Shown here one piece after another: positions 5,088-58,700 of a stretch of 64,000 nt of DNA (position 1 is its first letter; each line of letters opens with the position of its first letter). The notes under the pieces are model-generated. The model did not search any database, had not been told where the DNA came from, and worked only from the letters and a program-made list of their open reading frames with translations. The stretch is from Raillietiella orientalis (Eukaryota): assembly GCA_036172245.1 (NCBI GenBank), contig JAYWIR010000033.1, positions 186,001 to 250,000 of the forward strand, given 5' to 3'. The position numbers and the translations under genes were made by a program.

Positions 5088-5304
5088 TCCCTTCCCTTAC
5101 CCTCCCAACTTTTCTTTTCTTTTTTGTTTTGTTTTTTGTATTCCCCCCTTCCCCCTGCTGCTGTGGTGGACCGTACCGGTCTGCGAACCGGTGATTCGGC
5201 AGGCTCTGTGTTTCTTCGTGCGTGACTGGAGCAATGGTCCAGCCACCGCACGTTTTTGTAAAAGTTTATTTTCCAATAAACGCCCGGCGAAATCCGGGTG
5301 AAAA

Positions 5305-6556
5305 CCGAACGCCCTGTGGAAATCGACTGCGAGCGCTAGGGCCCCCTTCCCCGCCCGGGGGTCACTTCTCAGTCCGGCTGGCGGCCCCAATGTGGGGTTG
5401 CCGACTTTCCCTATCCCTTTCTTTTCTCTTCTCTGCAGGTGCACCCATGTGCTTGCGAAGAAGCGGTTGCCATCCATACTTCGCCCGGGAACAGCATAAG
5501 TCTGCTCCGGGCTAATTAGGGATTCTGCCACCTGCCCCAGACGCGAAGTCCATAGCCGTGCTATTAACTTGGCGTCCGAATTCACAATCGTGATCGGAGG
5601 CCAGTTCTTTAAATTCCTGACGTCTCCTTCTTTCGGAAGGAGCCTCACTCTGGCTGACCGAAACTAGGCGGGAACATCGCCTTCGCCTCGGATCAGCCTG
5701 ATCAACTTATGCAGCAGGGGTGCCAGCTCTTCCGCGAAGCTCTGAAAGAACTCTACGGGCAAGCCGTCTTCCCCTGGAGCCTTACGCCTCTTGAGTTTTT
5801 TGATACTGGCGAGAACTTCGCCGGTGGTAAAAGGCTTGTAGAGGCTTTCCATCTCCTCCTCCCCTATTGCCGGGGCGCCATCCGGAAGCAAGCGTCGAGA
5901 AACGTTCCGATCCGGGGGCTCCCTAACGTAAAGAGAGGAATAAAAACTTCGCACGAGATGCCGTACCGACGCCGGGAACGAACATTCCCTGCCCTGGGCG
6001 TGCAGCAAGCTGGCCGACCCGGATTGCCAGGCTTGGCGTTCGGCCCCGGCGCTGTACTCGCCCAGGCGACGAACATTAGGGGTTCTTTCGTACCTACGAG
6101 CCTGTAAATAGGCCCGATGGTTGCAAGGACCCTCGTTGAATCCGGAAGGCAGGCGGTCCAGGGGGAACTGCTCACAGAACTCGCGGACGGATTCTTTAAA
6201 AAGGTCCCAGTCCTGGAGATTCCGGAGCGTGACGCCTCTCAGGTATTCGCGAAGGTGTTTCTTCGCACCTGGGAGTCGCGTCCAGTCCTCCGGCAGACGC
6301 CAATCCTAGGATGGCGGTCCTTTGTCTCGAGGCAGCAACTCGAAAATTAACTGGGAATATCCCGACAACGTCGACGCAACCCTCCCCCGTTTGCCGACCC
6401 GTGAACACAGGTCAGCGTCGAGAAAGACGTGGTAGATGCTGCGGACCCTTCCCCTCTCACCCGCGAACAAGATGCGAGCACGCATGGCGGCGCACAACTC
6501 GTTCTTCGCGTTCTCTTGTGTTTCTGGCTCACCTGATAGCAGACGGAGATTGAAAT
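5305..6556 (-). mobile_element. Family T copy 1, downstream part of ORF2 (from APE GDFN to RT AF[D/G])
   Basis: FNLRLLSGEPE, KAPGEDGLP, PEQTYAVPGR, AVDFHRAF; continues exactly from 19876-22213. Confidence 0.9.
6533..6556 (-). repeat. Target-site duplication, downstream copy (partner 19876-19896)
   Basis: Minus strand ATTTCAATCTCCGTCTGCTATCAG versus ATTTCAATCTCCG---GCTATCAG. Confidence 0.85.
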
Positions 6557-9500
6557 TTATCACCCGGTCACGCCGGGGCGTTTATTAATAATAATAAACT
6601 GGTCAGGGACAATGTCCTCAACCAACAGGACGACAGAAAACATAGAAAAATTACCGGCACGCAGGCCTGGTAAACAAACCGCTCGCAGCGTGGGGGAATG
6701 AGGGGAAACAAACAAAAATCAAAAACTGGAGGGAAGGGAAAAGGGTTTTTGGTAAGGCTCCGTACTCACGGGGATTTAAACGATGAGCACCTCGAATGTC
6801 TTGGAGCCTATCGGGACGCGGGTGTAAAAAGAAAATACAAAATTAGTTTATGGAGGGTAGGGCAATGATCACCGGGTTGGCCGCTGATGAGGGTGTGTAA
6901 ACCGGCGGTGTATTGCGGCGAGATTCCTCTTTGTCTCCTCTGTCAAATGAGGCCATCTAGCGGATGCTCCCATGTAGAAGGATGCTTTGCTGATTACCTC
7001 TTGGTGCTGTCCGTTGATTACCAACGCCTGGCGTACGGAAACTATCGCGCGTATGCAACCGATGGTTGCAATCCTTGCGCTTAGTGACAGCCCGCTCGGC
7101 GTGAAGAATCGTCGCAGCAAGTCTCTTGCGGTGTCCACGGGATGCATTAGTGCTGTTGCCAGCCTACGCCACAGTCCTCGTAGGACACCGCAGTCCAGAA
7201 GTAGGTGCGGAATCGACTCCGTCGATCTGCACCGAACGCAGTTCGCAGACGCAAGTCCCCCGGAGTCACGATGCCAACGCACGTTGCACTGAAAACCCCA
7301 GTGAACGAAAAGCAGCACACTTGTTTCCAAGCAAGGAAAAGCAGCGAACTGTCCATACACTGTGAAGGGACTACAAGTTCTTCGGGGGTGACAGCAAGTT
7401 CTTCTGCCCACCGGAGGAGTCCCTTTGCAGTAACACGAGGAGTGGCAACGTCCGCCAACTCACTCGTCTTCCAGGCGCCAAGGATTTTGGTTTTTCCCGC
7501 TATCGTGCAGGAAACCTCCCACCTCGGCGGTTGGTAACTGTCGTTTCTTGCCCTGAGGGCAGACAGCGCTGCGGCAAGAGGCGTGGCAGCCAGGGTAGAA
7601 AACTTCACCTCGTCCTGCAGTACCTCTTTCAAGGATCGTGGAAAAAATTGACGCAGGGGGCGAAGATCTTCAGGGCGTATTCCTTGGAACGCCGCCCAGG
7701 ATTCAACAGACTCCTGCCGCCAAGCTTCAAAGTTCATTGGGAGGCAGGAGATCCACGAGTGAGCTTCCAGAAGTGCGGTCAACTGCCGCAATGGAAACCC
7801 GAAACCCCGCTTCCTGTATTGAGTGCCCGGCAAAAGCGAGAGAAATTCTCCGCTGCCGGCGCATCTCCGCAGGAGAATGCGGGCTGGCACACACAGGGGG
7901 GATGTCCATAGCTGGGCACACAGTGCCAGCAGTCGGAACTGCACCTGCAGTCCGATTCGCTCCATTGTCAAGATACCCAAACCAGCATCCCGACGCGGAG
8001 CTAACAAATCTTTAAGGCGGATCCTGGATCTCGCCGGACCCCAGAGAGCGTTCCTGAGCAGGCGTTTAGCCCGCTGTTTTGCCGCATAGGGGGGGTCCAA
8101 AACAAAAAACAGGGGACGGAGGAGGGGGGCCACAAAGGTGTTCCAAATAGTCGCCCGTTCCTGCAAGGTAAACTTGCCGTTAAAGAACGGGTTGATGGCC
8201 AACTCTGCTTTCTGAAGGCAGTCCGCCCACGCTTCGGCTGTGCCGAAAGCGTCCAACGGAACACCAAGTTACTTAAAGTACCCGCCCGTGGCGATCCCCA
8301 GGCGGATCCAGTCGGACTGCCCCTCCCACGACGTACCCACAGGAACGACCACGCTCTTCTCTATATTCACGTTCATGCCCGCTCCCCGACGAATCAGGTC
8401 GAAGAAATCCTCGACACTGGACGCCGGGGTGGACATGGGGGGCAGAAGAAGCAGGTCATCAGCGTAGGCGGCCACGGCAGGCGTTCCCGGGCAGGAGCTT
8501 GGCAAGTGAGACAGCGTCAGCCTGTATGCTCTTAGCACCAACTCAAAGAAGATGCTGAAGAGCAACGGGCTTAAGCTGTCGCCCTGTCGGATGCCCCTAC
8601 GAACGGGAATACCATACACGCGGCAGCCGCTGAAAGTCATGCAGGTTAGCGCGTGGCGCCAGCACGCGCGCAAATACAGCAGGAGTTGCGCCGGGAACCC
8701 AAGGCGTTCCATAAGCTCCAAAAGCAGCTTCTGGTTTACGCAGTCGAACGCCTTGTGGAGATCGACCGCGACCGCCAGGGCACCTGGCGTTCCCTCCTGC
8801 CGTCGGCGCCTGTTCTTCTTGCCTGCGGCAGTGACTTTCGCAGCAGCCTGGCTTTGCTGCGCCACAACTTCCTGCAGCTGCATCCATGTACGCGCGAAAA
8901 GGATGTTCGCCTCCATGGATCGTCCCGGAACCGCGTAGGTTTGTTCCGGGCTCACCACAGATTCCGCGATACTTCCTAGCCGCGGGACCCACAGCTTGGA
9001 AAACAACTTGACGTCCGAGTTCTCCAAGGTGATCGGACGCCAGTTGTTAAGTTGGCGCAAGTCTCCGCCCTTCGGCAGGAGACGCACCTTCGCTGAGCGG
9101 AAGGAATCCGGGACATTCCCGGATTCCCTCATCCCGGATTCACTCATCAGCGTCGCGAGTTTCAGCATCAAGGGAATGAGCTCCACTGCAAAGCACTGAT
9201 AAAACTCTGCAGGGGGCCCATCCTCGCCTGGCGCCTCTCGTCTCTTCAGCCCAGCGATTGCGGACGAAAATTCATCCACCGTGAAGGGCTCGTCGAGACG
9301 TTCGCCTTCCCTATTCGCCGACAACACGAGCATCCTGAGACAGAAGTATCTCAGAAAGAATATCCTCCGTCGGGGATTCCGCGTACAGCGAGGATAAGTA
9401 GGGTCTCACAATGCGGCGTACTTCGGCTGGGGCCGAACATTTCTGGCCCTTGTCGTGCAACAGCCATGCTGCTTGGACTGCCAGACCTGGCGCTCGGACC

Positions 9501-12410
9501 TCGCCTTGTACTCTGCGAGACGCCCGACATCTGCGCGTCTCGAAAACGTGCGGGCCTGCAGAAAGTCTCTACTGTTGGCCACGCCCTCTCCGAAACCGCG
9601 TGGAAGCCGGTGAAAGGGGAATTGGCAGCAGAACTCGCGGACAGATCTTTTGAGATCGTCCCAGTCCGCAAGTTCTTGAATGGGAAAGCCTCGGAGGTAT
9701 ATACGTAGATGCTTCGCAGCATCCGGTTGGCTAAGCCAATCCGCCTGCATCCTCCAGTTTTGGAACGGAGGCCCCTGCCTGGCGGAAGGATCTCAAACTC
9801 CAACCTGTGGTGGTCAGAAAGCCTAGTCAACAATCTTCCTCTCCAACCCACACGCGAATGCAGGTTTATATCGAGGAAAACGTGATCGAGCGATCTTTCC
9901 ATTCCAGGTTCGCTGACCATCAAGTTGGCGGCGTGCGCGGACGCGCACATCTCGATAAGCAGCGCGCGTTCCCTCGGGGGGCTCCAATCGTCGGAGAGCA
10001 GGCGGACGTTGAAGTCCCCAGCGACGAGGTGCGCCACTTGGAAACCGGAGTTGTTGAGCCAGTGGCTCTGCACCTCACCAAAGAAAGCTACTCTTTCTTC
10101 GAGGTAGCGAGAGCCACTCGGCGCGTAGACGTTCGTAACGACGAGATCGATGGACTCGGACCACTTGATGACAAGCTGGCCTATCCGTCCGTTGTCATCG
10201 AAACGAACACAACGCACCGCTTCCGCCATTTTTCCTCTTACGAGGAACGCGACGCCGCACGTGTGTGCGCCGCCGCACCGCCAATGTAGCGTTCCGCCTG
10301 CGCGCTCCTCGATTTCGGCTGCCTGCTCGTCGGAGATTACGTGAATCTCCTGCAGGAGCGCGAGGTCGAAGGGGCGCAGGGCGTTGGCTACCAATCGGCT
10401 CTTCTCGTCATTCTGTATTCCGTTCACGTTTCAACACGTTACGGACAGACGACAAGAAGACGCGATTCCCGCATTACTGCTGGGAAGGTGGCGGCTTTTT
10501 GCTCGCTTTATCCGGCGAGCAGACGGCGAGCAGCACGACTGGCTGGACCCCGTCGGGTTTCGTGGAGACTTCGCGTTGCTTCGTGGCGAGCGTTGCCTGG
10601 CTGCCTACTTTTGATCGGCGCGCACACGCTTTCGAGCGAGTTGTCCTCGTCTCGGTGATCGGAACGGCATCCATTTCGGAGTCCGACCGGCGCATGTTCG
10701 ATCGGGTTTCGGCCTTCCGCGAAGTAGTGACAGGTTCTGCTGGATTGACAGCTGTCCTGTTGTCATTTTCCGTCACAAGGGCATCGCTTTTGGTGACGGC
10801 TGCTTTCCCGGCGCGCGCGTTCTCAGCGTGCTCACGCGCAGTTGCACGAGGGACCTTTGCTGAAGTCTTCTTTACTTCATTACGGTTCCTCACTTCGCGT
10901 GGCGCCGTAAATGGAGATTCTGCTCCATTGCCATCTTTGAAGCCATCCGCGTCTTTGGACGGGAGCACTTTGGATGGCTTCGACACGCTCGTCATGGACG
11001 CTGCCTCCGGAAGGGCTTTCAATCCCTTCGTTGGCATGGCATCCGCGCCAGTCGAGAGCTTGCTCTCCGACTGCGACGGCGTGAGATTTTCCTCCGCTTT
11101 CGCAGTGTTCGATCGCGACGCGGATTTTTTTTTGCCGACTTTCGAAGTCGACACGACACAACCCTTCTTACCCGATTTGGGCTTATCAGACACTGCAGGA
11201 GGTGAAGGAATGGATCTGACGGTACTGGAAGTGTCCTTACCGCCGTTGTCCATTGACGTCCCCGCCGGCTGCTCGAACTCCGAAAGAGCCGGGCGTGCTT
11301 GGTTAGGACAGCTATTGCGCCTATGGGGACTTACCATTGCCCCGGATTCCCCGCACCCTTTCTTTTGCGGCTCCCCTGCCGCGAGAGGGGGCGCGCAGGG
11401 CTTCGCTTGCGAGGTTTCCTGCTGCTTTGGGGCGACATTCCGCCTCGCGTATTTCGGAATTTCTGCCGTGGGGTCTCCAGATTTTCCGCAGATTTTTTCT
11501 TTTTATCCGCGCTTTGTTTCTTAAGATGAAGCTCCGCGGCTGCCTTTTTTCGCAAAAGATCCGAGCATTTTTTCAATTGGTGCCCGGATAGTTTGCAATA
11601 ACGGCAATTTCCAGAGGAGCATTTATCCAAATAATGCCCCTTCTTCCCGCATTGCTCGCACGTTCTTACTTTGCCCACGAACCACAGGTGAACGACCGTG
11701 TCTTTCACCTGTAGTTTCGTGGGCAGCAGAAGGCGGTCCGGCATTGTAAGCCGGACTCCAGCGACTCCGCTATGTATGGACGGGAAGTCCTTGAGGTTGC
11801 TACGCATCCTCCACAGCGCATGGACCGTGGCGAATTTCGCGAACGCGTTCCGAATGTCAATATCGGAGATTTCCGACTCGATGTCGAAAATCTCCGCCAC
11901 AAATGAGTCGTCCATGGCGGCCGGGAAGACCTTCTGGCCACGGATCGACAACGGGGTGCGCAGCAAGCGTTGCACAAGTGCAGCGTCTTTGCAACGCACC
12001 TTCAAGTACCTCATGTCTTTTACGGGCATAATGGCGAGAAGGTCCTCCTCCCGCACGCCAACACGGGTCAGTTCATCGTTGAACTGATTCCCGTCGCGCG
12101 CAGAAAGAAAACCACTCACCTTATATCGGAGAGCAGGTCTATTGCCTTGGGCTACGTATGCCCGCAACTCCGACTCGTCGAGTGGTTTCCCTTTGACGGC
12201 TGCTGTGGCAGCAACGTCAGCAAAACTCCTCTCCATTGGCGACAAAGACGAAGTAAAGGCGGCCGTCGGTTCCGCGATTGCAGATCCGGATGCTGTTCCT
12301 CCAACTTCAGTAGCTTCAAGTTGGGTCGATAACGTCGTCAAAATGTACGACGCCAAGATCAAGCGGATGAAAGCACGGAGACAAGAGCGAAGAAAAACAC
12401 GTCCGCACTC
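6557..12410 (-). mobile_element. Family G copy A, full-length, frameshifted
   Basis: 5' GAGTGCGGACGTG at 12410; ORF1 about 12333-10474; ORF2 10474-6869 in fragments with YADD and CVRCRSTESIPHLLLDC; 3' hairpin 6557-6586. Confidence 0.95.
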
Positions 12411-12732
12411 GATTGAAATTTATCACCCGGTCACGCCGGGGCGTTTATTAATAATAATAAACTGGTCAGGGACAATGTCCCCAACCAAGAGAACGACAGA
12501 GAACATAGAAAAATTACCGGCACGCAGGCCAGGTAAACAAACCGCTCGCAGCGTAAGGGGAATGAGGGGAAACAAACAAAAATCAAAAACTGGAGGGAAG
12601 GGTAACGGGTTTTTGGTTAGGCTCCGTACTCACGGGGATTTATACGATGAGCACCTAAAATGTTCCGGAGCCTATGGGGACGCGGGTGTAAAAAGAAAAT
12701 ACAAATTTAGTTTATGGAGTGTAGGGCAATGA

Positions 12733-15700
12733 TCACCGGGTTGGCCGCTGATGAGGGTGTGTAAACCGGCGGTGTATTGCGGCGAGATTCCTCTTTGTCT
12801 CCTCTGTCAAATGAGGCCATCTAGCGGATGCTCCCATGTAGAAGGATGCTTTGCTGATTACCTCTTGGTGCTGTCCGTTGATTACCAACGCCTGGCGGAC
12901 GGAAACTATCGCGCGTATGCAACCGATGGTTGCAATCCTTGCGCTTAGTGAAAGCCAGCTCGGCGTGAAGAATCGTCGCAGCAAGTCTCTTGTGGTGTCC
13001 ACAAGATGCAATAGTGCTGTTACCAGCCTACGCCACAGTCCTTGTAGGACACCGCAGTCCAGAAGTAGGTGCGGAATCGACTCCGTCGATCCGCACCGAA
13101 CGCAGTTCGCAGACGCAAGTCCCCCGGAGTCACGATGACAACGCTCGTTGCACTGAAAACCCCAGTGAACGAAAAGCAGCACGGCTTGTTTCCAAGCAAG
13201 GGGGAGCAGCGAACTGTCCATACACTGTGGAGAGACTACAAGTTCTTCGGGGGTGACAGCAAGTTCTTCTGCCCACCGGAGGAGTCCCTTTGCAGTAACA
13301 CGAGGAGTGGCGGCGTCCGCCAACTCACTTGTCTTCCAGGTGCCAAGGAGTTTGGTTCTTCCCGCTATCGTGCAGGAAACCTCCCACCTCGCCGGTTGGT
13401 AACTGTCGTTTCTTGCCCTGAGGGCAGACAGCGCTGCGGCAAGGGGCGTGGCAGCCAGGATAGAAAACTTCACCTCGTCCTGCAGTACTTCTTCCAAGGA
13501 TCGTGGAAAAAATTGGCGCAGGGGGCGAAGATCTTCAGGGCGTATTCCTTGGAACGCCGCCCAGGATTCAACAGACTCCTGCCGCCAAGCTTCAAAGTTC
13601 ATTGGGCGGCAGGAGATCCAAGAGTGTGCTTCCAGAAGTGCGGTCAACTGCCGCAATGGAAACCCGAAACCCCGCTTCCTGTATTGAGGGCCCGGCAAAA
13701 GCGAGAGAAATCCTCCGCTGCCGGCGCATCTCCGCAGGAGAATGCGAGCTGGCACACACAGGGGGGATGTCCATAGCTGGGCACAAAGTGCCAGCAGTCG
13801 GAACTGCACCTGCAGTCCGATTCGCTCCATTGTCAGGATACCCAAACCAGCATCCCGACGCGGAGCTGACAAATCTTTAAGGCGGATCCTGGATCTCGCC
13901 GGACCCCAGAGAGCGTTCCTCAGCAGGCGCTTAGCCCGCTGTTTTGCCGCATAGGGGGGGTCCAAAACAAAAAACAGGGGACGGAGGAGGGGGGCCACAA
14001 AGGTGTTCCAAATAGTCGCCCGTTCCTGCAAGGTAAACTTGCCGTTAAAGAACGGGCTGATGGCCAACTCTGCTTTCTGAAGACAGTCCGCTCACGCTTC
14101 GGCTGCGCCGAAAGCGCCCAACGGAACGCCAAGGTACTTAAAGTACCCGCCCGTGGGGATCCCCAGGCGGATCCAGTCGGACTGCCCCTCCCACGACGTA
14201 CCCACAGGAACGACCACGCTCTTCTCTCTGTTCACGCTCACGCCCGCTCCCCGACGAATCAGGTCGAAGAAATCCTCGACACTAGACGCCGGGGTGGACA
14301 TAAGGAGCAGAAGAAGCAGGTCATCAGCGTAGGCGGCCACGGCAGGCGTTCCCGGGCAGGAGCTTGGCAAGTGAGACAGCATCAGCCTGTATGCTCTTAG
14401 CACCAACTCAAAGAAGATGCTGAAGAGCAACGGGCTTAAGCTGTCGCCCTGTCGCATGCCCCTACGAACGGAAATACCATACACGCGGCAGCCGCTAAAA
14501 GTGATGCAGGTTAGCGCGTGGCGCCAGCACGCGCGCAAATACAGCAGGAGTTGCGCCGGGAACCCAAGGCGTTCCATAAGCTCCAAAAGCAGCTTCTGGT
14601 TTACGCAGTCGAACGCCTTGTGGAGATCGACCGCGACCTCCAAGGCACCTGGCGTTCGCTCCTGCCGTCGGCGCCTGTTCTTTTTGCCTGCGGCAGTGAC
14701 TTTCGCAGCAGCCTGGCTTTGCTGCGCCACAACTTCCTGCAGCTGCATCCATGTACGCGCGAAAAGGATGTTCGCCTCCATGGATCGTCCCGGAACCGCG
14801 TAGGTTTGTTCCGGGCTCACCACAGATTCCGCGATTCTTCCTAGCCGCGCGACCCACAGCTTGGAAAACAACTTGACGTCCGAGTTCACCAAGGTGATCG
14901 GACACCAGTTGTTAAGTTGGCGCAAGTCTCCGCCTTTCGGCAGGAGAGGCACCTTCGCTGAGCGGAAGGAATCAGGGACATTCCCGGATTCACTCATCAG
15001 CGTCGCGAGTTTAAGCATCAAGGGAATGAGCTCCACTGCAAAGCACTGATAAAAGTCTGCAGGGAGCCCATCCTCGCCTGGCGCCTTTCGTCTCTTCAGC
15101 CCAGCAATGGCGGACGAAAATTCATCCGCCGTGAAGGGCTCGTCGAGACGTTCGCGTTCCTCCTCGCCGACAACACGAGCATCCTGAGACAGGAGTATCT
15201 CAGAAAGAATATCCTCCGTCGGGGATTCCTCGTAGAGCGAGGAGTAGTAGCGTCTCACAATGCGGCGTACTTCGGCTGGGGCCGAACATTCCTGGCCCTT
15301 GTCGTCCAACAGGCATGCTGCTCCGGTCTGCCAGACCTGGCGCTCGGCCCTCGCCTTGTACTCTGCGAGACGCCCGACATTTGCGCGTCTCGAAAACGTG
15401 CGGGCCTGCAGAAAGTCTCTACTGTTGGCCACGCCATCTCCGAAACCGCGTGGAAGCCGGTGAAAGGGGAATTGGCAACAGAACTCGCGGACAGATCTTT
15501 TGAGATCGTCCCAGTCCGCAAGTTCTTGAATGGCAAAGCCCCGGAGGTATCCACGTAGATGCTCCGCAGCCTCCGGTTGGCTAAGCCAATCCGCCTGCAT
15601 CCTCCAGCTTTGCAACGGAGGCCCCCTGCCTGGCGGAAGGATCTCAAACTCCAACCTGTGGTGGTCAGAAAGCTCAGTCAACAATCTTCCTCTCCTACCC

Positions 15701-16326
15701 ACACGCGAATGCAGGTTTTCATCGAGTAAAACGTGATCGAGCGATCTTTCCATTCCAGGTTCGCTGACCATCAAGTTGGCGGCGTGCACGGACCCGCACA
15801 TCTCGATGGGCAGCGCGCGCTCTCTCGGGCGGCTCCAATCGTCGGAGAGCAGGCGGACGTTGAAGTCCCCAGCGACGAGGTGCGCCACTTGGAAGCCGGA
15901 GTTGTCGAACCACTGGCTCTGCACCTCACCAAAGAAAGCTTCTGTTTCTTCGAGGTAGCGAGAGCCACTCGGCGCGTAGACGTTCGTAACGACGAGATCG
16001 ATGGACTCGGACCACTTGATGACAAGCTGGCCTATCCGTCCGTTGTCATCGAAACGAACACTACGCACCGCTTCCGCCATTTTTCCTCTTACGTGGAAGG
16101 CGACGCCGCACGTGTGTGCGCCGCCGCACCGCCAATGTAGCGTTCCGCCTGCGCGCTCCTCGATTACGGCTGCCTGCTCGTCGGAGATTACGTGAATCTC
16201 CTGCAGCAGCGCGAGGTCGAAGGGGCGCAGGGCGTTGGCTACTAATCGCCTCTTTTCGTCGTTCTGCAGTCCGTTCACGTTCCAACACGTTACGGACAGA
16301 CGACGAGAAGACGCGATTCCTTGCAT
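12733..16326 (-). pseudogene. ORF2p of copy B (APE, RT, CCHC; about 1197 aa) with one in-frame TGA at 14092-14094
   Basis: ORFs 14092-16326 and 12733-14067 share a frame; paralogues have TGG (AEAW) at the stop. Confidence 0.95.
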
Positions 16327-18248: not shown

Positions 18249-18334
18249 CGTCGTCAAAATGTACGACGCCAAGATGAAGCGGATGAAAGCACGGAGACGA
18301 GAGCGAAGAAAACACGTCCGCACTCGATTGAAAT

Positions 18335-33018: not shown

Positions 33019-33173
33019 TGCTGCTTCAGTTGATGAGGCTGATCGGAGACGAGAGCGATGTTCCCGCCTCCTTTCGGTCAGCCAGGGTGAGGGTCCTTAA
33101 GAAAGGGTGAGACCACAGGGATCAAGGAACAGGCGTCCGATCACGATTGTGAATACGGACGCCGAGTTGCTAG
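33019..33173 (+). mobile_element. Short RT N-terminal fragment
   Basis: DVPASFRSARVR, RPITIVNTDAELL. Confidence 0.75.
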
Positions 33174-33250
33174 TTGCCATCCGGTCACGCCGGGTAGTTT
33201 ATTATAAATTCTCTACAATTCGTGGTACGAGGCCCCACTGCAACCAACTC
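33174..33250 (-). mobile_element. Family K 3'-terminal stub (about 75 bp)
   Basis: Matches 36120-36195. Confidence 0.8.
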
Positions 33251-44328: not shown

Positions 44329-44336
44329 ACGCATCA

Positions 44337-47918: not shown

Positions 47919-50900
47919 TCCCTTCACCGCCCTCCCACCCCTACAACATTTGTTCCCCCCCCACATTTGAACTTTTTGTTTCTTTTTGTTTTTCTTTATT
48001 TCCCATCCCCGCGCATCGGAAGAACCTCTCCGGCACGGAGCCGGTAACCAGCAAGCTGTTTTGGAGTGGTGAACCTTCGGGTTCACCACGTGACATTTTT
48101 CTGTAATTTTATTTCTATGAAATAAATGCCCCGGCACATCCGGGTGTGAACAACCCGCCGCCGCGCGAAAGCCGACGCCGCGACAAAGTCGCGAGCCCAG
48201 CGTGAGCAGCGACGACCGGGACTTCAACAAGGCGGCGGAAGAGTTCGCAGCCATGCTCAAGTAACCTCCCAAGGCCGACAAGAGGACCTTGTAACGTCCG
48301 ACTGAGGCGAAAGGTCCGGAAACTTCCGAGTCCGAAGCCGAAGCCGGCAACGCTCCGGCTGTCGCTCTCCCAAAGCGCAAAGCGGGCCGCAAGGTAGGCA
48401 ACCCGCGGCGCTCCGCACCTCCACCGGCGGAGGAGGAAATGCGGTGACCACGACGACGGGGAGGCGATGTCCGCGAGGTCTCGCGACTGCTCGCCGGAGG
48501 CGGCCTTGGCCAAGCAGGATCCTCCAACCACCACCACAACCACCGACGGACCGCCTTCTTGCGAGGAACAGCCCGTCGCAATGGATACACAACTCCCGCC
48601 TGCTGAACAGCAGGCGGAGGACGGTAAGCAAGCACAATAAACACACCAACGCGTGGACTCTCCTCCTGCCGGCGACTGCGCGTAATCTGTTGGAACGTCA
48701 ACGGGTTGCGCGACGACGGCAAGAGGAGAGAAGTGGCCGCCAGCCTGCGGGACTTCGACCTGTCGCTTCTGCAGGAGACGCACGTGCTCCACGCAGGGGA
48801 GGCCCAAGAAATCGAACGGATCGCAGGCGGGCGGCTCGTATACCAAAACGGGAGAGACCACACCCGCGGTGTGGCTTTCATGCTGAAGCCAGCCGTCGTT
48901 AATGCGCTGCGCGACGTGCACTTCGACGGGGAAGGTCAAATCGGGCAGCTTGTTGCCAAGTGGTCCGACGCGATCGTCCTCGTCGTGACCAACGTGTACG
49001 CGCCCGGCACGAGCCACAGGCGCGGGGAACGCACTGCGTTCTTCGAAGGCCTGCGGCGAGATTGGCTGGCCGAAGCAGACATGCGAAAGGCGCACCTCAT
49101 TGCCGGGGACTTTAACGTCCGCCTGCAGGCAGGTGCGCTCGACATTCGCGCACAGCTGGTCAACGAGATGTGCGCTGCCATGCACGCGCGCAACTTGTTG
49201 GCCGGTGACGCCGGGACGGAGACGAGGATCGACCACATGTTCCTCGACAACCACCTGTGTTCGCGGGTGGGAAATCGAGGGGCAGTGCCATCCGAACTTT
49301 CCGACCATCCCCGGCTCGTGCTAGAAATACACCCGCGCGGTAGAGGTCCACCCTCCACAGCGTGGCGTTTGCCAGGGGACTGGTTGCGCCTCGCAGGAGC
49401 AGCGCAACATCTTCGCTCGTTCCTGCAAGGCTTCCATCTGCAGTCGCTCGCGGACTGGGACGACTTGAAGAGCTCGGTCCGCGAGTTCTGCGACCATTTT
49501 CATCTGAACCGTCTCCCTCCAGGTTCCAGCGAAGGGCTGAGGAACGACCGGGCATACCACCACGCCCGTCTTTAATCTAGGACTCCCGACGTTCGACGCC
49601 TGGCGGAGTATATAGCTGGGGCTGAGCGACAGACCTGGCAATCCGGGTCGCCCAGCTTGCTGGACGCTCAAGGCCAAGAATGCTCAGCTCCGGCGAGTAG
49701 AAACCGCATCCTGCGGGACTATCACTCCTCCTTGTACGCGCGTAGAACAACAGAAAACGCCGTGGCGCAGCGCTTGCTGCCGCAAGGCGCCCCCGCGCTG
49801 CCGGAGGAGCAGGCATATCATCTCGAGGAGCCTTTCTCGATGATGGAGATCGTCTCCGCCATCGGAAAGCTCCGAAAGAGGAAAGCACCAGGAAAAGACG
49901 GTGTGCCCGCAAAGTTCTACCAAGGCTTCGTGGCGGAGCTGGCCCCCCTGGTGCATCGGCTATACATGCTGATCCGAGAACAAGGGGACGTCTTTAAATC
50001 GTTCCGGTCAGCTAGAGTACGTCTCCTGCCGAAAGGAGTAGACAATCGCAACGTTGGCAACTGGCGTCTCATCACAGTAGTGAATGCGGATGCGAAGTTG
50101 CTTGCCAAGCTTTGTGCTGAGCGACTGGGACGGGTGGTGGAATCCGCGGTGAGTCCGGAGCAGACATACGGTGTTCCCGGACGAAGCATGGAGGCTAACC
50201 TGTTCCTCGCCAGTACATGGTGGCAGTTGCAACAAAGCGAAGACCAAGGAGGTCAAGAGAATCCTGGATTCTCCTCTGACCAGGAAGGGGACGCCCTTCA
50301 TGGAACAGCCGCTCCCGATGCCCTTGAGGTCGCAGTCGATCTGCGTAAAGCGTTCGATTGCGTCGACCAGGAACTGCTTCTGGAGCTCCTGGAACGCTTG
50401 GGATTCCCGACCGTCTTCCGGGCTTACCTGCGCTCCTGCTGGCGCTTTGCTCTAATAAACATCTCTTTTAGGGGCCGGCACGTGTACGGAGTGCCGGTTC
50501 GGCGTGGCATAAGGCAGGGTGAAAGTCTGAGCCCCTTGCTCTTCAGCATCTACTCCGAGCTGGTGCTGAGGGCATACAGGGAGACTCTGGCAACCCTGCC
50601 AAGCTCGTGTCCTGGCACGCCTGCCGTGTCAGCCTACGCCGACGACCTTCTGCTCCTGCTCTTCGGATCCACCCCGCCGTCGGCGCTCGAAGATTTCTTT
50701 GAGTTGCTGCGCCGCAAGACGGGCCTAGAGGTGAACAGACATAAATCTTCCATCGTACCAACATCACCACAACTTTTCAACAATACGGCGTAGGCCGGAC
50801 GGCCGGACTGGATCCGCTTGGGGATCCCCACGTGCAGGTGCTTCAAGTACCTTGGCGTTCCGTTGGGGGACTTCTGCGTTGCAGAAGCCTGGTCCGACCG

Positions 50901-52505
50901 TCTCCAAAAGGTGGAGTTGGCGATCGGCCCGTTCCGGAACGGCAAGTTTTACTTGCAGGAGCGGGCCGCGGTGTGGAACGCGTTCGCGGCCCCAGTCCTT
51001 CGCCCCTTACTTTTTGTTTGCCCCGCCCCTCCCATCATACAGAGACGGACCAAAGCCCTCTTGAGGACTGCCCTTTGGGGCACAGCGAGGTCGCGAGTCC
51101 GATTGAAAGACTTGTGCGCTCCACGCAGGGATGGTGGCTTGGGCATCCTTACGTTGGAGCGCATCCAACTTCAAACAAGAATTCGAAAGTTAGCCCTTGC
51201 GGCTAGCTTATGGATGACGCCATTGTGCGATCCGGCACGGCTCCTCTCCAGAAGAGCAACCGGCTGCGAAGGATTGTCCTCGATCCTCGTGGCCTACCAG
51301 CGCAGCCTCTCCAAATGTTGCCCCGATTTGCGCCAGATGGTCGCCCTGATGAGAAGGAATACCTGGATCTGCTGCATCCCCGGGAACTGCTCTGGCTGGC
51401 TTCAGGAGTCAGCTTCTGCGTGGGCTAAGATCAACGGCACGAGCGAGGCGGAATACAACTGCCTACGACGAGGACCGTACGCTCGAGAGCCGCTGTAGGA
51501 GATTATCAACACGCCCCGGAAGTTTCTGTGGGCTTATTCCAGTCCCTTTGGCCCCGTTCTGTCCTCTCTGAAAAACAGTAGGAGCAGCAACGAGCTGGCA
51601 TCGTGGGAAATGTCCCTTCTCATCCGAGGCAGGAAAAAACCTTTAATGGCGTGAACGACTCAAGAGCTCACGGACGCTGCCACCGCGAGCGTCCCGCCTC
51701 ACGGACTTGCGCGCTGGGGAGAGCTGCTCGCAATACCTCCGGAGGTGGTGAAGTGGTCCCCAGCGTGTTGGGATTGCGGCACACTTCCGTTGAAGTGGCA
51801 GGAGACGGCGTTGCTATTTTTGCACTGGGGACTGTTAAGCAGAGCACGCCTGTCTCACTGGACACTGGGGAATGTGGATGCCCGCTGTTTCGAGTGCGGA
51901 AAATGAGAAACCTTCCCGCATCTCACCCTCGAGTGAGTCGCCCTGGATGGACTCTGGAGTCGAATCTCCACAATCCTCCATCTTCCAGTAGGCGACCCTA
52001 AGGAAATTTCCCGTCGCCTCTTTCTGCGTGACGGCTTGCGCCCCGCTGCGTCTCTAGCAGTCCTTTGCTGCGTGCGCGGCATTGTGCAAAGGTGGCACAC
52101 CAGAAGAAGAGGCATAAGATGCAGGGACGCCATCCACTGGACGACGATCTCTTTAGAGACGGCGACAAGGTGACGTCTACCTTTCACAATAAAAACTGAA
52201 CTTGACTGCATCCTCAACAGGATGCGGAGGATCGACCCAGGCGCCCAGTGATCCCTTCCCTGCCCCCCCCCTCTCCCCATACAACTGTTTCCCTCCCCGT
52301 TATCTCTCTTTTTGTTTATTTTTGTTCTCTTTTTCCCTTCCCATGCGCCTCGAGAATGGACCTAACCGGTCTATGCACCGGCAACAGACACGTCAACCAA
52401 GGTGGGAAAACCAAGTGTTTCCCACAATGAACTTTTGAAAGACTTTATTATCTAATTGTTGTTGAAAATTAGAATAATATATGCCCCGGCATATCCGGGT
52501 GGCAA

Positions 52506-52975
52506 ACTTCGGCTGCAGCCGAGCATTGCTGGCCAACCTCATCGAGCAGACAAGCCGCAGCCCTTGCAGCCTCGTGCTGCGTCCGAGGCATCGTTGCGGC
52601 ATGGAGCGACACCAACAAGGAAAGAGTGGGTCAACACGCGAGGGATGTCATCCCATATGCCCAACGCTTTTTGCGGAGAGCTGCTAAATGGCCCCAACTG
52701 GGGAATCTACGGATGGACCTCGAGGGCTTCCTTCAACGGATGGGCCGTCCTCTCAGCGAACAGTGATCCCTTCATTGCCCCCCAACCTCACTTGTTTGTT
52801 TGCCTATTTGTTTTTATTTTTGTTTTTCCCCATCCCCTTTCGCTGCCGGGGAGTGCCACGCCGGGCTGCGTCCCGGCGTCCCGGTAGGTACCGTGCATAA
52901 GGACGTGAGCGGGGCCAGGTACCGCAATTGTAGAGTTTTTTATAAATGAACGCCCCGAGCGTACCCGGGTGATAA
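52506..52975 (+). mobile_element. Family T copy 5, short 5'-truncated copy
   Basis: CCVRGIVAAWSD-coding end and 3' UTR match 28022-28440; ends GCGTACCCGGGTGATAA. Confidence 0.88.
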
Positions 52976-52993
52976 CTCCGAATCCCCGCTGTG

Positions 52994-55706
52994 GAGAGCG
53001 GACGTGCTTTTCCTGCGCTTCGCCTGCGTGGCAAAGCGAGTGTTTTTTCTTCTTGAGTGATTTGTGCGTGCACATCGTCGGTGTCCGATGGCAGCGTTGC
53101 CAGAGCACACCGCGATGGAAGTAGGCGTGATGAAGGCTTGTTCGTCCCCACAGCCTACTGGATCAGGGGCATCCGCCCCGGAATCGTCCCCGGCGACGCC
53201 GAGGTCATGGAGCGCCATGGTGGCCGCTCTTAGCGTGGAAGCCATGGCCGAGATGGAAGCCTACAAGAAAGCGGGGTATAAACCCTCGCTAGTCTACAAG
53301 GTAGGCAACCTTTTCGATGGGCGAACTGCACGCGCCTTTACGAAGGCGCTGCAGAACGCCAATATTTTTGAAAAAGATCTCGAGGGCCTCTGCGTCCTCA
53401 GCGACGGACAGCGGGTCGAGGTGGTATGCAAGGATATCACCTTGGCCCGACACCAGATCACCGACCCGCTGATCATTGATGGTCGGAAGATCTTGCCGAT
53501 AACGATGGACGGCTCGGTGGTGGTCCATCTCACTGGGATCTCCAGTCGCATGACAAGGTCAGCGGTTCTAGAACAGCTACAAAAGCACGGAGAAGTGCAC
53601 GCGTTGTGGCCGAAGTCTACGATTTTCGAAGGCTACAATAGCCTTTTCGGAGGTCAAGCTGCGGCGCGTATCACAGTAAAAGAGGGTGTTGCGCTTCCCC
53701 ACAAGCTGTAGGTCTGCCAAGAAGCAATGGACCTCTGGTACGTGGGGAAACGCCAATTTTGTGGCTACTGCATTGCAGTAGGGCATCTACGCAAAAGGTG
53801 CTTGAACATTGTGTGCCACCTATGCGGCGAAAAGGGTCATGTTTGCGCGTGTGCCCCAAGCGCCCCACCCCGGTGCCCCCTGCTGCCAAAAAGGCGCAGT
53901 GAAACTGTGGAAAGCTGGTAGAATGACCAGCTCGCGAAAATAGCCGTTCCCAACTGCCAGCCTCCCTTCCTCCCGTACAGACGTCGGAGGAAAGAGCTCC
54001 CGTGAACGCGGAAATGGAGGAGGGTTGGCAGCTGGTTCAGGTTAGAAAAGAGAAAAAAAAGAAAGTGACGTTGGAAGAAAATTCAGAGAAGAAAACTGCC
54101 GGCAACAAGAAAAAAGCCGCGCCGCTTCCAAAAAAAAAACTCCGCGAATGCTCGGTGGCACTGGAACGCTTAGCCGTTCCTGCCGAGTCCGCCCGCGGCA
54201 ATGTTCGCGGAACAGCTGATGCGGACGCGATGAACACTCGCGTTGACGAGCCCAATCTACGTTTACAGGGTGAAACGCGAGACTCCCGCGCCGTCAACGA
54301 TGACGCCGCGCTCGATAAGGTCGCGGAGCAGCCCGTGGCAACGGTCGCCGCTAGCGAAGACGCGGCCTTCGAGAAAGCGGCGGAGGAGCTCGCAGCAACG
54401 CTCGCCGAGCGCGAAACCCCGTCGCGCAAGGGCGTACGCAGGTCGACTCCGACGGAGAAGGCCCCCGCAGGTGAGTGCGAGCTGGGGGCCGCAAGCGGAT
54501 CCTCCTCCTCGGAGGCACCCCCCAGGAAGTCGGGACGCAAGTCCCAGAAAGCCAGAAGGCGCCTCCCCTCTGCCAGCGAGGAGGAGAAACCGGAAGGAAG
54601 CGGCAGCGTGGGAATCCCGGAGGGGGAATATTCACGCCCGGAAGCCGTCGAGTCGGCCACCCCCATGGAGGAGGTAGAGCAGGGGGGTGAAGTCCTCCCT
54701 GCAGTCGCGAAACCTGAGCAGCATAAACCCATGGAGGAAGGCGAACAGGTAGGCGCGACTCCACCTGCGGGTGATCCGGCCGACGCGCCGGCACCGATGG
54801 AGGAGAAGGAAAAGGTGCCTTCAGTACCTGTCCCCCCTCCCCCTCCACCTAGCGTCTTGCCCCAGCAGGTAGCGGACGCCGCATCGCCTTTTTCCCTGGA
54901 CTAACACCTGGGCTCGCCAGTCGCCGTCGGATTCGCGCGGCCTGTTGGAACGTCAACGGGCTGCGCGACGACGGCAACAGGCGAGATACAGCCGACACCC
55001 TGCGTGAGCTCGACCTGGCGCTGCTGCAGGAGATCCACGTGATCACCGCGGCAGACGCCCAGGAAATCGAAACGATCGCGTGGCGTCGGCTGTATTGGCG
55101 ATGCGGCCTCCGCAACACCTGCGGGGTCGCGTTCTTCGTGGAGCCGGCCATCGACGCTGCCGTAAAGGCCATGCGGTTTGATGACGACGGTCGGATCGGT
55201 CAGCTGATTCTCAGCTGGTCCGACTCGATCGACCTAATCGTCACAAACGTGTATGGCCCCAGCGGCAAACAGGGTTACCGCGACCGCACCAGGCTGCTGG
55301 AAACCCTGAAGCGCGACTGGCTGGCGGATACCAATGTGCAAAAGGCGCACCTGATAGCGGGAGATTTCAATCTCCGCCTGCTAACAGGTGAGCCGGAAAC
55401 ACAAGTGAACGCGATGAACGAGTTGTGCGCTGCCATGCGTACGCGCAACTTGTTCGCGGGTGAGAAAGGAATGGTCCGCAGCATCGACCACGTCTTCCTG
55501 GACGCTGACCTGTGTTCACGCGTCGGCAAACGGGGGAGGGTTGTGTCGACGTTGTCGGACCATTCCCGGCTAATTTTCCAGATGCGGCCTCGCGACAAAG
55601 GACCGCCATCCAGGGATTGGCGTCTGCCGGGGGACTGGACGCGACTCTCAGGTGCGAAGGAACACCTTCGCGAATACCTGAGAGGCGTCACGCTCCGGAA
55701 TCTCCA
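52994..55706 (+). mobile_element. Family T copy 6, 5' part (ORF1 53088-54904, APE domain)
   Basis: 5' GAGAGCGGACGTG; SEAPPRKSGRKSQK; IAGDFN, LSDH. Confidence 0.93.
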
Positions 55707-58700
55707 TTGAAACCCGGGTGCGCCGGGACGTTTATTTTCACGAATAAACCTATACAATCTGTGACTGGACCAGTAGTCCAGCCACGCCCTGGAAAGATAT
55801 AGCTTGCCGGGCGACCGGTGCGCAGACCGGCGCGGTCGATCTCGGCAGCAGAGGGGAGGGGGAACGAAACAAAAAGAAAACAAAAAAAATAAACAAAAAT
55901 CAGGGAGGGAGCGGAAAGGGATCACAGTCTGCTGGGAGGGTCCGTCATCCTCTGGAGGATGCCGGCAAGCTGTTGCTGCGTGTGTGGTTCCAGATAGTTC
56001 CATCGCGTCGCCATCCAGAGGAAACGGGCGGCATACACGTTGGCATCCCTGTCGCTGGATCCTCCCGTCGCTTTGCTCCATGCCACGACGATCCCGCGTA
56101 GGCAGCACAGGGCTGCAAGCGAGGCCGCTGGAAGCAGGGCAACACGGACGAAGAGGGGGCGCGAAGCGTCTCTGGGGTTGCCTCCGGGGATCTCCAGGGC
56201 AGCGGCAAAGCGTTCCCACAAGGGACGGAGGGCAACACAATCCACTAACAGGTGAAGGAGGTATTTTCTCTTCCCGCACCTGACACAATTAGGGTTGACA
56301 CCCCCCCGCGTCAAGTGGTGTCGGCGGGCGTTGCAGGGAAGCTTTCAATGCAACACCAGCAGTGCCGACTGTTGCCACTTCATGGGCAGGGTGCGCGAGT
56401 CCATGAGCACCTGTGGCCACTCGAGATGTTCCTCAGGAACATCCAGTAGCTCTATCCAGCGCAACAGTCCATTTGGGGTGGTCCTCGGGGTCGCAGCGTT
56501 CGTGAGCTGACCCGTTCTCTAATCCACGAGATTCTTTGCCTTTCTGGCGATCTTGACTGTAACCTCCCATTGTGCCGCGACGTCGCTGTCCAGATGTTCC
56601 CGTAGGGTAGGCAGTACCGCAGCAAGGGAGGTTCTTTGTGCCCACGCTCTCCTTCGGGGATTATCGATGATTTCTCGGAGCGTGCGGCGGGCATGCGGCA
56701 TGAACAGAGCTATTCGCTCGTGTTTCGGGCTCTGCTCCTGAATCATCGCCCACGTGCGGACGGTTTCCTGCAACCAGGCAGGACCGTTCGCGGGGCATAC
56801 GAGGATCCGCGCCGAGTTCTTCTTCACGAGCTTGGTCGCCCTCCGAAGTTGAAGTCCGCAGTGACAGATGGGGCTTAGGAGAGCAAAGTAGGACGAGATT
56901 CCCGCATTGCCGGTGGCCCGCTTGACAAGGAGACGTGCAGGGAGGCACCAAGGGATGCAACAATTTTCTGCCATAAAGGCAACAACTCGGAACTGGAGCT
57001 GTAGCTCCAGCCACTCCAACGTCAAGAGGTCCAGACCACCATCCCGACGAGGAGCGCACAAGTCCGAAAGACGGACTCGGGGCCTCCCTCTGCCCCAAAG
57101 GGCGATCCTGAGGAGGTGCTTCGTGCTCTTCCTTGACTCCGTTGGGGTGGGGGCAAACAAAATGCAAGGGGCGAAGGAGGGACGCCGCAAACGCGTTCCA
57201 CGCCGTGGCCCGTTCATGCAGGGAGAACCTGCCGTCCTGGAACGGGCCGATCGCCGCCTGAGCCTTCTGAAGGCAGCCTGACCACGCTCCCGCAGGGGAG
57301 TAATCCCCCAACGGCACACCAAGGTACTTGAAGTACCTCACCGTGGGGATCCCCAAACGGACCCAGTCCTGCTGCCCTGCCCACGCCGATCCGACTGCCA
57401 TTACGGACGACTTCGCCCTGTTCACCGTCAGTCCTGTTCCACGACTCAGCAGGTCGAAGAAGTCGTCGACCGCCGAGGCCGGGGTGGACATAGGCAGCAG
57501 CAGCAGAAGATCGTCCGCGTACGCCGAAACCGCAGGCGTACCGGGGCAATCGCACGGCAGGTGCGTCAGAGTCTCCCTGTACGCTCTCAGCACCAATTCG
57601 AAAAAGGCACTAAAGAGCAGGGGGCTCAGGCTGTCTCCCTGCCGTATGCCGCGTCGCATCGCTATTCCGTGCAAGGTTTGCCCGCTGAAAAGAACATTAA
57701 TGAGCGCGTCGCGCTACCTGGAGCGCAGGTAGGCCAACAAAGAGGCCGGGAAGCCCAAACGTTCCAGAAGCTCCAGCAGGAGATTCTGGTCGACGCTGTC
57801 GAATGCTTTACGCAAGTCGACAGCGACCGCAAGGGCTTCCTTCCCCACCCGACCGTTCCGTCTCCCGCCAACGGACGCACCGGAATTCCGGCTGCTCAAT
57901 AAGCCCCTTCCTTGTTGGAGCTCTAACCATGTGGAAGCGTGGAACAGGTTCGCCTCCATGCTCCGCCCGGGAACAGCATAAGTCTGTTCCGGGCTGATGA
58001 AGATGTTGGCAACCCTTCCCAGACGCTCTGCCCACATCTTGGCTATCAACGTGGCGTCCGCATTCACTATTGTGATGGGACGCAAGTTGGTCATGCTCCT
58101 TAGGTCTCCTCCCTTCGGGAGGAGCCGCACCTTTGCTGAACGAAACGAGGTTGGAACGTCACATGTTTCACGGATCAGCAAGGTGAGCTGATGTACCGGG
58201 GGAGTAAGCCCTGCCACGAAAGTTTAATAAAACTCCGCGGGCAGGCCGTCGTCCCCTGGAGCCTTCCGCCTCTTGAGCTTTAGGATGGCCGAGAGGATCT
58301 CGTCCATCGTGAAAGGCTCGTCGAAGCTTCTTTTCTCCTCTTCCCCGATCGCTGCAGCACCTTCCGGAAGCAGAAGTCGTGAGACGTCTCGCTCCAGAGG
58401 CGCCGTGGCGTACAGGGAAGAGTAAAATTTCCTCACTATCCTGCGTTTCTGAGCTGGAACCGAGTGCTCCCGGCCCTGGACGTCCAGCAAGCTGGCCGAT
58501 CCGGATTGCCTGGCTTGCCTCTCGGCTCCCGCTCGATACTCTGCTAACCTGCGCATGTCGGGGGTTCTCGCGAAACGTCGGGCCTGAAGTTAGCACCTTT
58601 CGTTACGCGGCCCCTCCCCAAATCCCTCAGGTAGGCGATGCAGGGGGAACTGATCGCAGAACTCCTGGTCCGACCGCTTGAAGCGGTCCCAGTCCTCAAG

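Follow-up and report, generated by a model that had tools for sequence, protein, structure and literature searches.

Sibling LINE lineages nested at recurrent, probably lineage-specific nucleotide addresses in one another's coding sequence in a 64-kb window of Raillietiella orientalis

How does a stretch of genome come to consist of retrotransposons alone, and what decides where each of them enters? The question is raised by 64,000 nt of Raillietiella orientalis (assembly GCA_036172245.1, contig JAYWIR010000033.1, positions 186,001-250,000 of the forward strand; hereafter the window). Searches by tblastn and with a profile made from the window's own copies resolved essentially the whole 64 kb into pieces of the two open reading frames (ORF1 and ORF2) of one superfamily of long interspersed nuclear elements (LINEs), lying on both strands, and GC content stays at 53-62% along its entire length. 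A sequence-only reading had proposed that several families here each insert at a fixed nucleotide in a conserved ORF2 motif of the others. We consider it likely that the array in the window nests in itself and comprises eight or more sibling lineages from one group of non-LTR (long terminal repeat) elements with an apurinic-like endonuclease (APE), each integrating by target-primed reverse transcription at its own sequence address, mostly a coding stretch common to the ORF2 of the other lineages. The labels F, G, T and K are those of the sequence-only reading; E44, E48, F', H, L, S8, S9, R2, R3, E11 and the suffixes that mark copies are ours (Table 1). Residues are numbered throughout by ORF2 of G2, which is the best-preserved copy and serves as our reference element.

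The elements appear to share one layout, an ORF1 with CCHC knuckles followed by an ORF2 with an APE endonuclease, a reverse transcriptase (RT) and a C-terminal Cys/His motif. A domain scan of eight ORFs detected RVT_1 in three and Exo_endo_phos in two (one ORF having both) and nothing in three; the matches in ORF2 pieces reached 5e-11 and 1.2e-12 for Exo_endo_phos and 2.6e-18 to 2.5e-28 for RVT_1, while zf-CCHC was seen in one of the eight, as a sub-threshold match to a weak CCHC knuckle. On G2 the Pfam spans are aa 26-233 for APE and aa 474-745 for RT, so that ORF2 has the endonuclease-then-RT order of an APE-type LINE. The copies also show the marks of target-primed reverse transcription, namely variable 5' truncation (G3, G4, Tc, Tf and Kf are 5'-truncated), a defined 3' end and target-site duplications. 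No Rfam family was found in the 64-kb window.

We identified 14 hairpin-type 3' ends, the identical set picked out in the sequence-only reading. Ten came from a pattern scan, whose other two rows of 12, at 43215 and 53265, were rejected as element ends because both lie inside ORF1 coding sequence; four degenerate ends (33203-, 35115+, 28052- and 52946+) were read directly. Each end is built of AATAAA, 2-4 nt, a CCCGG N5-6 CCGGG hairpin and TGNNAA (TTTCAA in F'). An A-tail is absent at all 14: the hairpin is followed by 2-4 A's (in TGAAAA, TGATAA, TGGCAA, TGTGAA or TTTCAA) and then directly by the target. AATAAA occurs 43 times in the 64-kb window against 11.4 expected and, because it stands about 24 nt before the element end, probably sets the 3' end of the RNA. 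The hairpin folds clearly in 7 of 12 copies and weakly in two, with the other three, degenerate copies, unfolded; it is a putative recognition element for the RT. The last 72 nt of the 3' untranslated region (UTR) cluster like the codon tree described below, with T and K near each other. The final tail letters do not follow the site: T ends in TGGCAA twice and in TGATAA once, and K in TGAAAA and in TGGCAA.

We then mapped the flanks of these ends onto ORF2, counting two junctions as coincident if they fell at the same codon within 1 and in the same orientation. F1 (5304) and F2 (25141) lie antisense after TTCG(A/G) of the AFD motif at aa 583, the flank being the antisense of ...GC(G/T)TTCG(G/A). 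Tb (28022), Tf (32892) and Tc (52975) lie antisense after GGN-G, at the first base past LPxGFG (aa 307), and Kf (33174) and K (36120) lie antisense after TTGCTAG, at the first base past DxKLL (aa 497), with a flank that is the antisense of ...AAGTTGCTAG. G1 (6550) and G4 (35151) lie in sense at G|ATTTCAA of GDFN (aa 165); the codons past the motif read ATTTCAA|TCTCCG at G1 and ATTTCAA|CGTTCG at G4, and the 7 nt can be assigned to either tail or target. Within each class the junction falls at the identical nucleotide (F 2/2, T 3/3, K 2/2, and 2/2 for the non-tandem G ends), which is the behavior of a target-specific LINE in this window. The two other G ends, G2 (12413) and G3 (18328), each abut the 5' end of the next G copy and have only ATTTCAA in common with the GDFN site. 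The earlier count of 11 of 14 ends in four classes (G 4, T 3, K 2, F 2) is therefore borne out as a count, but it contains only nine independent hits, two of its G ends being G-G tandem joints.

The three other ends lie elsewhere. That of E48 (52505) is antisense in SAxAEV at aa 364, that of F' (55707) is antisense at aa 280, and that of E44 (48150) is in the ORF1 tail of E48, where E44 is flanked by exact 12-bp copies of CAACCCGCCGCC at 42558-42569 and 48151-48162 and the two E48 halves are colinear with E44 across the join. A previous assignment of the E44 flank to antisense ORF2 near aa 368 rested on matches with E=0.09 and was overturned by the E48 ORF1 tail and the 12-bp duplication. Altogether the further addresses are aa 364, aa 280, aa 62-66 (see below) and two in ORF1 tails. 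Four recurrent sites thus stand as first proposed, but the division of targets is wider and less tidy than a partition into four, with at least four additional singleton addresses that include ORF1.

Recurrence on this scale is not chance coincidence, which we consider excluded: the 11 ORF2 junctions contain six coincident pairs where a uniform model expects 0.07, and none of 200,000 simulations reached six. The claim that the site tracks the donor family was upheld within the window: in each of the six same-clade pairs the two donors have their site in common, and only 6 of 200,000 label shuffles equal this. GDFN lies in the APE domain, DAKLL and AFD in the RT domain and LPxGFG in the linker between them. 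The targets had also been described as the most constrained codons of the elements. In 7-codon windows over up to 17 copies, with broken copies somewhat contaminating the figures for GDFN and LPxGFG, DAKLL reaches the 99.9th percentile of nucleotide conservation and AFD the 97.8th, with GDFN at the 87th and LPxGFG at the 19th, so that the description suits the first two, applies moderately to GDFN and does not apply to LPxGFG. Intact copies of each motif stay uncut in many elements, and the motif alone is therefore insufficient.

Donors and recipients were placed with a tree of 374 C-terminal codons, which joins F1 and F2 with F', Tb with K, G1-3 with G4, and E44 with E48, and leaves L distant (support 0.96-1.00). 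The 5' parts of T1, T2 and T3 group tightly (85-90% identical), and T1b has in Tb (82.8%) a closer relative than in K (76.6%). Two pairs of sister clades, T and K and F and F', have different addresses at 65-69% nucleotide identity; G and G4, which are 67-68% identical, have one address in common. F entered T1 and the E-like S8; G entered T1 and the F-like R3; T entered the F'-like S9, the E11 lineage, F2 and K; and the K site was hit in the T-like R2, the F-like R3 and Tb, the last of these by E11. The network also has F' in T, E48 in a G-like element, E44 in E48, H in F' and L in H. Recipients at one site thus come from different clades, which rules out one duplicated chimera as the source of each class. 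For F (80.0% versus 68.9%), G (69.8-80.4% versus 63.1-64.9%) and T (76.5% versus 59.1-60.3%), identity is higher among the donors than among the flanks they abut, in keeping with the earlier statement that the recipients had diverged from each other and do not represent one junction duplicated. For K the two values are similar (donors 77%, flanks 76-81%). We had considered that the K pair might be a duplicate on its flank identity of 79-81%, and withdrew this once its recipients fell in different clades: R2 is 82.6% identical to T1b and R3 85% identical to F1, F2 and F', while R2 and R3 are 76.3% identical with 15 gaps by direct alignment, which was used because codon-anchored identities understate this pair owing to a frameshift in R2.

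Target-site duplications, which range from 10 to 24 bp, and 5' ends give a second view of the same addresses. The G3-G2-G1 array is flanked by a duplication of 17-24 bp (ATTTCAATCTCCGGCTATCAG at the end of T1a, ATTTCAATCTCCGTCTGCTATCAG at the start of T1b) that reads ATTTCAATCTCCG(T/G)(CTG)CTATCAG on both sides, and T1a and T1b are the halves of one T element, both aligning to T2, where they overlap by 13 nt. The sequence-only reading had noticed several 5' ends at the recurrent 3' addresses; we place four full-length ones there or close by: those of T1 in F2, T2 after a GFG remnant, E11 in Tb and, nearby, T3 in K. The 5' end of T1 abuts F2, which starts with CTCGCCAAGGGATTTGGAG, the 19 nt up to the T nick; that of T2 follows the 23-nt GFG remnant, which Tc later entered at the canonical nucleotide; and that of E11 abuts Tb, which starts with GCATGCCAAGTTGCCAG, the 17 nt up to the K nick at DAKLL. 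The reciprocal attack of F and T on each other is real, and both hits involve the one T copy T1: F1 interrupts it at AFD, and its own 5' end is in F2 at LPxGFG with a duplication of ~19 bp. The resulting order of nesting, S8 <- F2 <- T1 <- {F1, G array}, shows F at work before T1 came in and again afterwards.

The G tandem probably has a different origin. From 6550 to 19875 on the minus strand, G3, G2 and G1 lie head to tail within a single duplication, 94-95.5% identical to each other and separated by ATTTCAA alone. Had the copies re-targeted the site independently, a full duplication would be expected between them, as is seen between Tc and T2. The tandem therefore fits repeated re-targeting less well than two other origins, one of which we infer: either an RT template jump, in which the enzyme left one template at its 5' end and took up another at its 3' end within a single integration, or later unequal exchange. 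Template jumping is a property of the R2 RT. G2 itself is near intact, with a TGA at 14092-14094 of ORF2 where G1 has TGG, and G copies on contigs of a sequencing run (X1, below) are 98.4-98.6% identical to it, suggesting that G may have been active recently.

Do the lineages avoid themselves? Of 15 events none is an insertion into the donor's own clade; chance alone would give about two, too few for self-avoidance to be established statistically. At its own address T, in the one T copy covering it (T1b, 6143), reads GGATTCAACG where its targets read GGATT(T/C)GG(N)G, and K at its own site (38460) reads AAGTTCCTCG where its targets read AAGTTGC(T/C)AG; F does not differ from its targets near the nick. 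The changes in T and K, seen in one copy each, may represent self-immunity.

Run X1 contained 42% of the sampled words, and 495 of its contigs were placed on the window, 32 of them at >=99% identity. What follows was seen among the joints and loose ends listed, beyond which there are at least 355 loose ends and at least 10 joints; most of the listed joints are colinear cross-family mappings and not rearrangements. One contig joins 6543 to 19884 with 13 shared letters and represents a T copy with an empty G site. On another, a further G copy (1,030 nt, 14 differences from G2, 98.6%) has its tail followed by TCCGCCTGCT, which fits the codons after GDFN. On a third, a G-like 3' tail abuts an F-like element at F1 position 1669, and F' is broken in the window at 1660, next to the 5' terminus of H (59352); together these breaks suggest an additional antisense address at aa 62-66 with a 10-bp duplication. 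On a further contig, at F1 position 1975, an F-like element has a G-like hairpin in antisense, 16 nt away from the GDFN D codon, the contig's shorter side comprising 21 letters. Either an antisense variant of the G address or a chimera made in assembly could explain it. Runs X2 and X3 yielded low-complexity matches only.

A mechanism can be proposed in which the APE domain of each lineage reads the address and makes the first nick. G would nick the antisense strand opposite G|ATTTCAA of GDFN and so enter in sense. F, T and K would enter antisense, priming from the recipient's sense strand after TTCGA (AFD), after GGN-G (LPxGFG) and after TTGCTAG (DxKLL), respectively. Since every insertion would bring with it the full set of addresses, the array would feed itself and grow on itself, and the elements would be kept away from genes. 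A bolder version, which we regard as a tentative possibility with the balance somewhat against it, is a closed transposon ecosystem: a LINE radiation that abandoned the host genome and lives on one another's coding sequence, with endonucleases re-tuned to at least eight codon-level addresses in both orientations, with some of its own addresses altered (GFN in place of GFG in T, TTCCTCG in place of TTGCTAG in K), and with a self-extending array like the centromeric DNA of some algae.

Several other explanations deserve consideration. The chief of these, to which we give a small but real chance, is that the endonuclease is weakly specific and that the flank of a read-through RNA anneals to a homologous stretch, so that an address is inherited by location and is not encoded in APE. 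Read-through flanks help precise joining in R1-type elements, and here a flank of this kind would find many partners, as all the targets are common among the elements. The G tail and its target have 7 nt (ATTTCAA) in common, and the failure of the tail letters to track the site in T and K, which implies that the tail itself is not the guide, is also as this explanation would have it. Yet flanks of the same class are only 59-69% identical over 115-500 nt while the junction is exact to the nucleotide, the sister clades T/K and F/F' differ in address as expected if specificity is encoded, and a correctly placed nick would still be required.

Another possibility is targeting at the level of the region. 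The elements might be drawn to the array as a region, for example to centromeric chromatin, and there cut a short common motif in a place that holds little but ORF2 copies. That all 64 kb are LINE sequence would fit, as would the one cluster per chromosome described for Zepp and ZeppL elements (PMC3446292, PMC8226300, PMC9940879). We nevertheless think this improbable: each clade has an exact nucleotide and a fixed orientation, the coincidences were reached in 0/200,000 simulations and the clade-site match was equalled in 6/200,000 shuffles, and intact motif copies remain uncut in many elements. Still less credit can be given to the idea that the recurrent junctions go back to a few ancestral chimeras that spread by segmental duplication within the array and then diverged. 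The array has clearly undergone duplication or rearrangement, as in the G1-G2-G3 tandem, and for the K pair donor identity (77%) is about that of the flanks. The spread of same-site recipients over different clades, seen for the F, G, T and K sites alike, largely refutes it, however, and both the greater likeness of F, G and T donors than of their flanks and the variation of truncation points among copies speak against it as well.

Lineage-specific addressing in the siblings' coding sequence, the reading that we favor, must itself be set against a number of observations that weigh against it. All junction statistics come from one 64-kb window, with two to three independent events per class, and the X1 contigs provide supporting evidence only. 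The hairpin is small, z being <= -2 in no more than 2 of its 12 folds, and its conservation lies in sequence, not in covariation. At LPxGFG, S9 reads GCCTGGTCAGGCG and matches the remaining T targets poorly; T3 joins K with its 5' end 3-4 codons past the T nick and hence off the T site; and the G-G joints, as discussed, are not simple re-targeting. Finally, the flanks of E48 are mismatched, being T3 aa 196 in sense at the 5' end (41382) and 55 nt of G-like aa 347-364 in antisense at the 3' end, which must reflect either rearrangement or aberrant 5' joining; and the pieces at 32.9-35.2 kb cannot be ordered as simple nested insertions. These last two cases imply that rearrangements also occurred.

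The full set of elements and fragments is given in Table 1.

Table 1. LINE copies and fragments along the window, with position, strand and main characteristics.
Element	Position	Strand	Description
F1	1..5304	+	Near full-length F: ORF1, ORF2 aa 7-1205, 3' UTR; 5' end beyond window start; tail AATAAA-hairpin-TGAAAA
T1b	5305..6549	-	T1 ORF2 aa 165-583; interrupted at AFD by F1 and at GDFN by G array; 91% identical to T2
G1	6550..12412	-	Full-length G with several frame breaks; 95.5% identical to G2
G2	12413..18327	-	Full-length G; ORF1 open, 678 aa; ORF2 ~1208 aa, open save one TGA
G3	18328..19875	-	5'-truncated G (from aa 806), head-to-tail with G2
T1a	19876..22210	-	T1 5' UTR, ORF1, ORF2 aa 2-178; ends in upstream target-site duplication copy ATTTCAATCTCCGGCTATCAG
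F2	22211..25141	+	F from aa 302 to 3' end; recipient of T1 at LPxGFG, donor into S8 at AFD; 84.4% to F1
S8	25142..25713	-	E-like ORF2 fragment aa 393-584; F2 recipient; 78-80% to E48/E44
S9	25916..28021	+	F'-like 5' part: ORF1 piece and ORF2 aa 12-310; Tb recipient at LPxGFG
Tb (=E10)	28022..30390	-	T aa 495-1184 and 3' UTR, tail TGGCAA; interrupted at DAKLL by E11 5' end
E11	30391..32891	+	Separate lineage: 5' UTR, ORF1, ORF2 aa 5-310; 5' end at K site of Tb, ~17 bp duplication; Tf recipient at LPxGFG
Tf	32892..33010	-	T 3'-terminal fragment, ~120 nt, tail TGGCAA
R2	33012..33173	+	T-like ORF2 fragment aa 445-497; Kf recipient at DxKLL
Kf	33174..33245	-	K 3'-terminal fragment, ~70 nt
G4	33250..35151	+	Diverged G, aa 707-1208 and 3' UTR; ~67-73% to G1-3 by region compared; G-type tail TGATAAATTTCAA
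R3	35152..36119	+	F-like ORF2 aa 167-499; recipient of G4 (GDFN) and K (DxKLL); 83.6% to F1
K	36120..39019	-	K aa 311-1200 and 3' UTR, tail TGAAAA; interrupted near LPxGFG by T3 5' end
T3	39020..41381	+	T 5' part: 5' UTR, ORF1, ORF2 aa 3-196
E48 5' part	41382..42569	+	5' UTR and ORF1, as far as left duplication copy CAACCCGCCGCC
E44	42570..48150	+	Full-length; sense insertion in E48 ORF1 tail; exact 12-bp duplication; 9 extra nt at 5' joint
E48 3' part	48151..52505	+	Remaining ORF1, ORF2 aa 6-1180, 3' UTR, tail TGGCAA
G-like fragment	52506..52560	-	ORF2 aa 347-364; E48 recipient at SAxAEV
Tc	52546..52975	+	5'-truncated T: aa 1135-1204 and 3' UTR, tail TGATAA
LPxGFG target remnant	52976..52998	-	23 nt, antisense SPQRGFG; between Tc 3' end and T2 5' end
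T2	52999..55706	+	T 5' part: 5' UTR, ORF1, ORF2 aa 2-280; interrupted at aa 280 by F'
F'	55707..59351	-	F sister lineage (77% identical); ORF2 aa 59-1205 and 3' UTR, tail TTTCAA; interrupted at aa 62 by H 5' end
H	59352..60714	+	5' part of G-related element; ORF1 50% identical to G ORF1; 5' terminus G-like
L	60715..63958	-	Distant LINE lineage, ORF2 ~26% to G; antisense in H ORF1 tail

Some features of these copies stand apart from the question of targeting. Full-length copies at 22210, 30391, 39020, 42579, 52999, 59352, 12412 and 18327 have in common the 5' terminus ...ACGTG(Y)TTTT..., ahead of which G and H carry ~8 extra nt (TCGAGTGC / TACAGTGC); its conservation across lineages suggests a common initiator or an internal promoter. 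The 3' hairpin of L is unlike the others and reads CCCCAC...GTGGG...GGGGAAAA. Between S8 and S9, at 25713-25869 (+), there is an isolated 157-bp piece of T-type inter-ORF sequence, 78-85% identical to T2 and T1a, with a recognizable end on neither side; plain nesting does not account for it. The 3' UTR of G4 contains a T-rich, microsatellite-like tract of TTTTG/TTTGT runs at 34920-34995 (+); complementary A-rich runs (AAAAC/AAACA) occur, among the contexts listed, in minus-strand contexts of the E44 and E48 3' UTRs (47980 and 52320) and in a plus-strand context at 55890 opposite F'.

Relatives outside the window were also sought. A word-indexed protein search returned four matches of at most 26% identity and no close relative, and Protein Atlas returned generic APE+RT clusters only. 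With phmmer over representative proteins, P0005 matched at 60%, P0062 at 68% (106 aa) and P0072 at 60% (132 aa), the next match being at 36% with nothing more above 40%. Among metagenome contigs, the 80 loci kept out of 196 stretches encoding a relative were generic RTs, 24-39% identical and uninformative for junctions; prokaryote genome contigs gave one distant match and viral contigs none.

If each lineage lands at its own nucleotide in the endonuclease/RT gene of other elements, this may explain how transposon-only arrays build themselves, and it would give a concrete mechanism for the origin and growth of such arrays, for example the Zepp-type clusters proposed as algal centromeres. Site-specific LINEs are natural models for programmable, RNA-templated DNA insertion, and close relatives that differ mainly in address, like the sister clades at 65-69% identity, would form a natural experiment of unusual clarity on shifts in APE specificity. 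Where transposons are one another's genomic niche, with reciprocal hits between lineages, competition, self-avoidance and coexistence become directly testable.

How does the array compare with known systems? Zepp-like LINEs of centromeres, and the nested clusters that Zepp forms once per chromosome, are the subject of PMC3446292, PMC8226300, PMC9940879, PMC11005252 and 10.1101/2025.03.28.645958. Zepp (Chlorella/Coccomyxa) and ZeppL of green algae form GC-rich, LINE-only clusters by insertion into existing copies, with frequent 5' truncation (Blanc 2012, PMC3446292; Craig 2021, PMC8226300), and Chlamydomonas is described with a single ZeppL family (PMC9940879). The window resembles these clusters, as they are there described, in being a pure LINE nest with a GC content of 53-62%, and differs from them in its many coexisting lineages, each with a codon-level address and a fixed orientation, and in the many copies that retain full-length 5' ends. 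Zepp, moreover, has a poly(A) tail, whereas the copies of the window lack an A-tail.

Target-specific families include Tx1L in the Tx1D transposon, Keno in U2, Mutsu in 5S, R1 in 28S and TRAS/SART in telomeric repeats. In several features the window elements are like those of the Tx1 and R1 clades: they have an APE endonuclease, an exact and recurrent 3' junction in a multicopy target, short target duplications or deletions, and a 'safe' repeated target. They are unlike them in that they hit the coding sequence of sibling autonomous LINEs rather than host genes, satellites or DNA transposons, and in that the donors are also recipients (F in T, T in F). Transposons as such are among the known targets of target-specific APE LINEs, as listed by Kojima and Jurka (2015, PMC4640811). 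In Drosophila telomeres several LINE lineages (HeT-A, TART and TAHRE) likewise co-occupy head-to-tail, self-only arrays, but they add to chromosome ends without internal sequence addresses, whereas insertions in the window are internal, occur in either orientation and have target duplications at their flanks. The rDNA unit is partitioned among lineages of R elements (R1, R2 and further R elements) at different positions. There, as here, each of several relatives has a nucleotide address of its own within one repeated unit; in the window, unlike rDNA, that unit is the elements' own ORF2 (and ORF1), and the pool of targets grows with each insertion. We found in the literature searched no case in which several sibling LINE lineages are each described as having a fixed codon-level address in ORF2 of the others, a point on which the primary Zepp papers may bear. 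What the window shows is site-specific LINE targeting combined with Zepp-type self-nesting.

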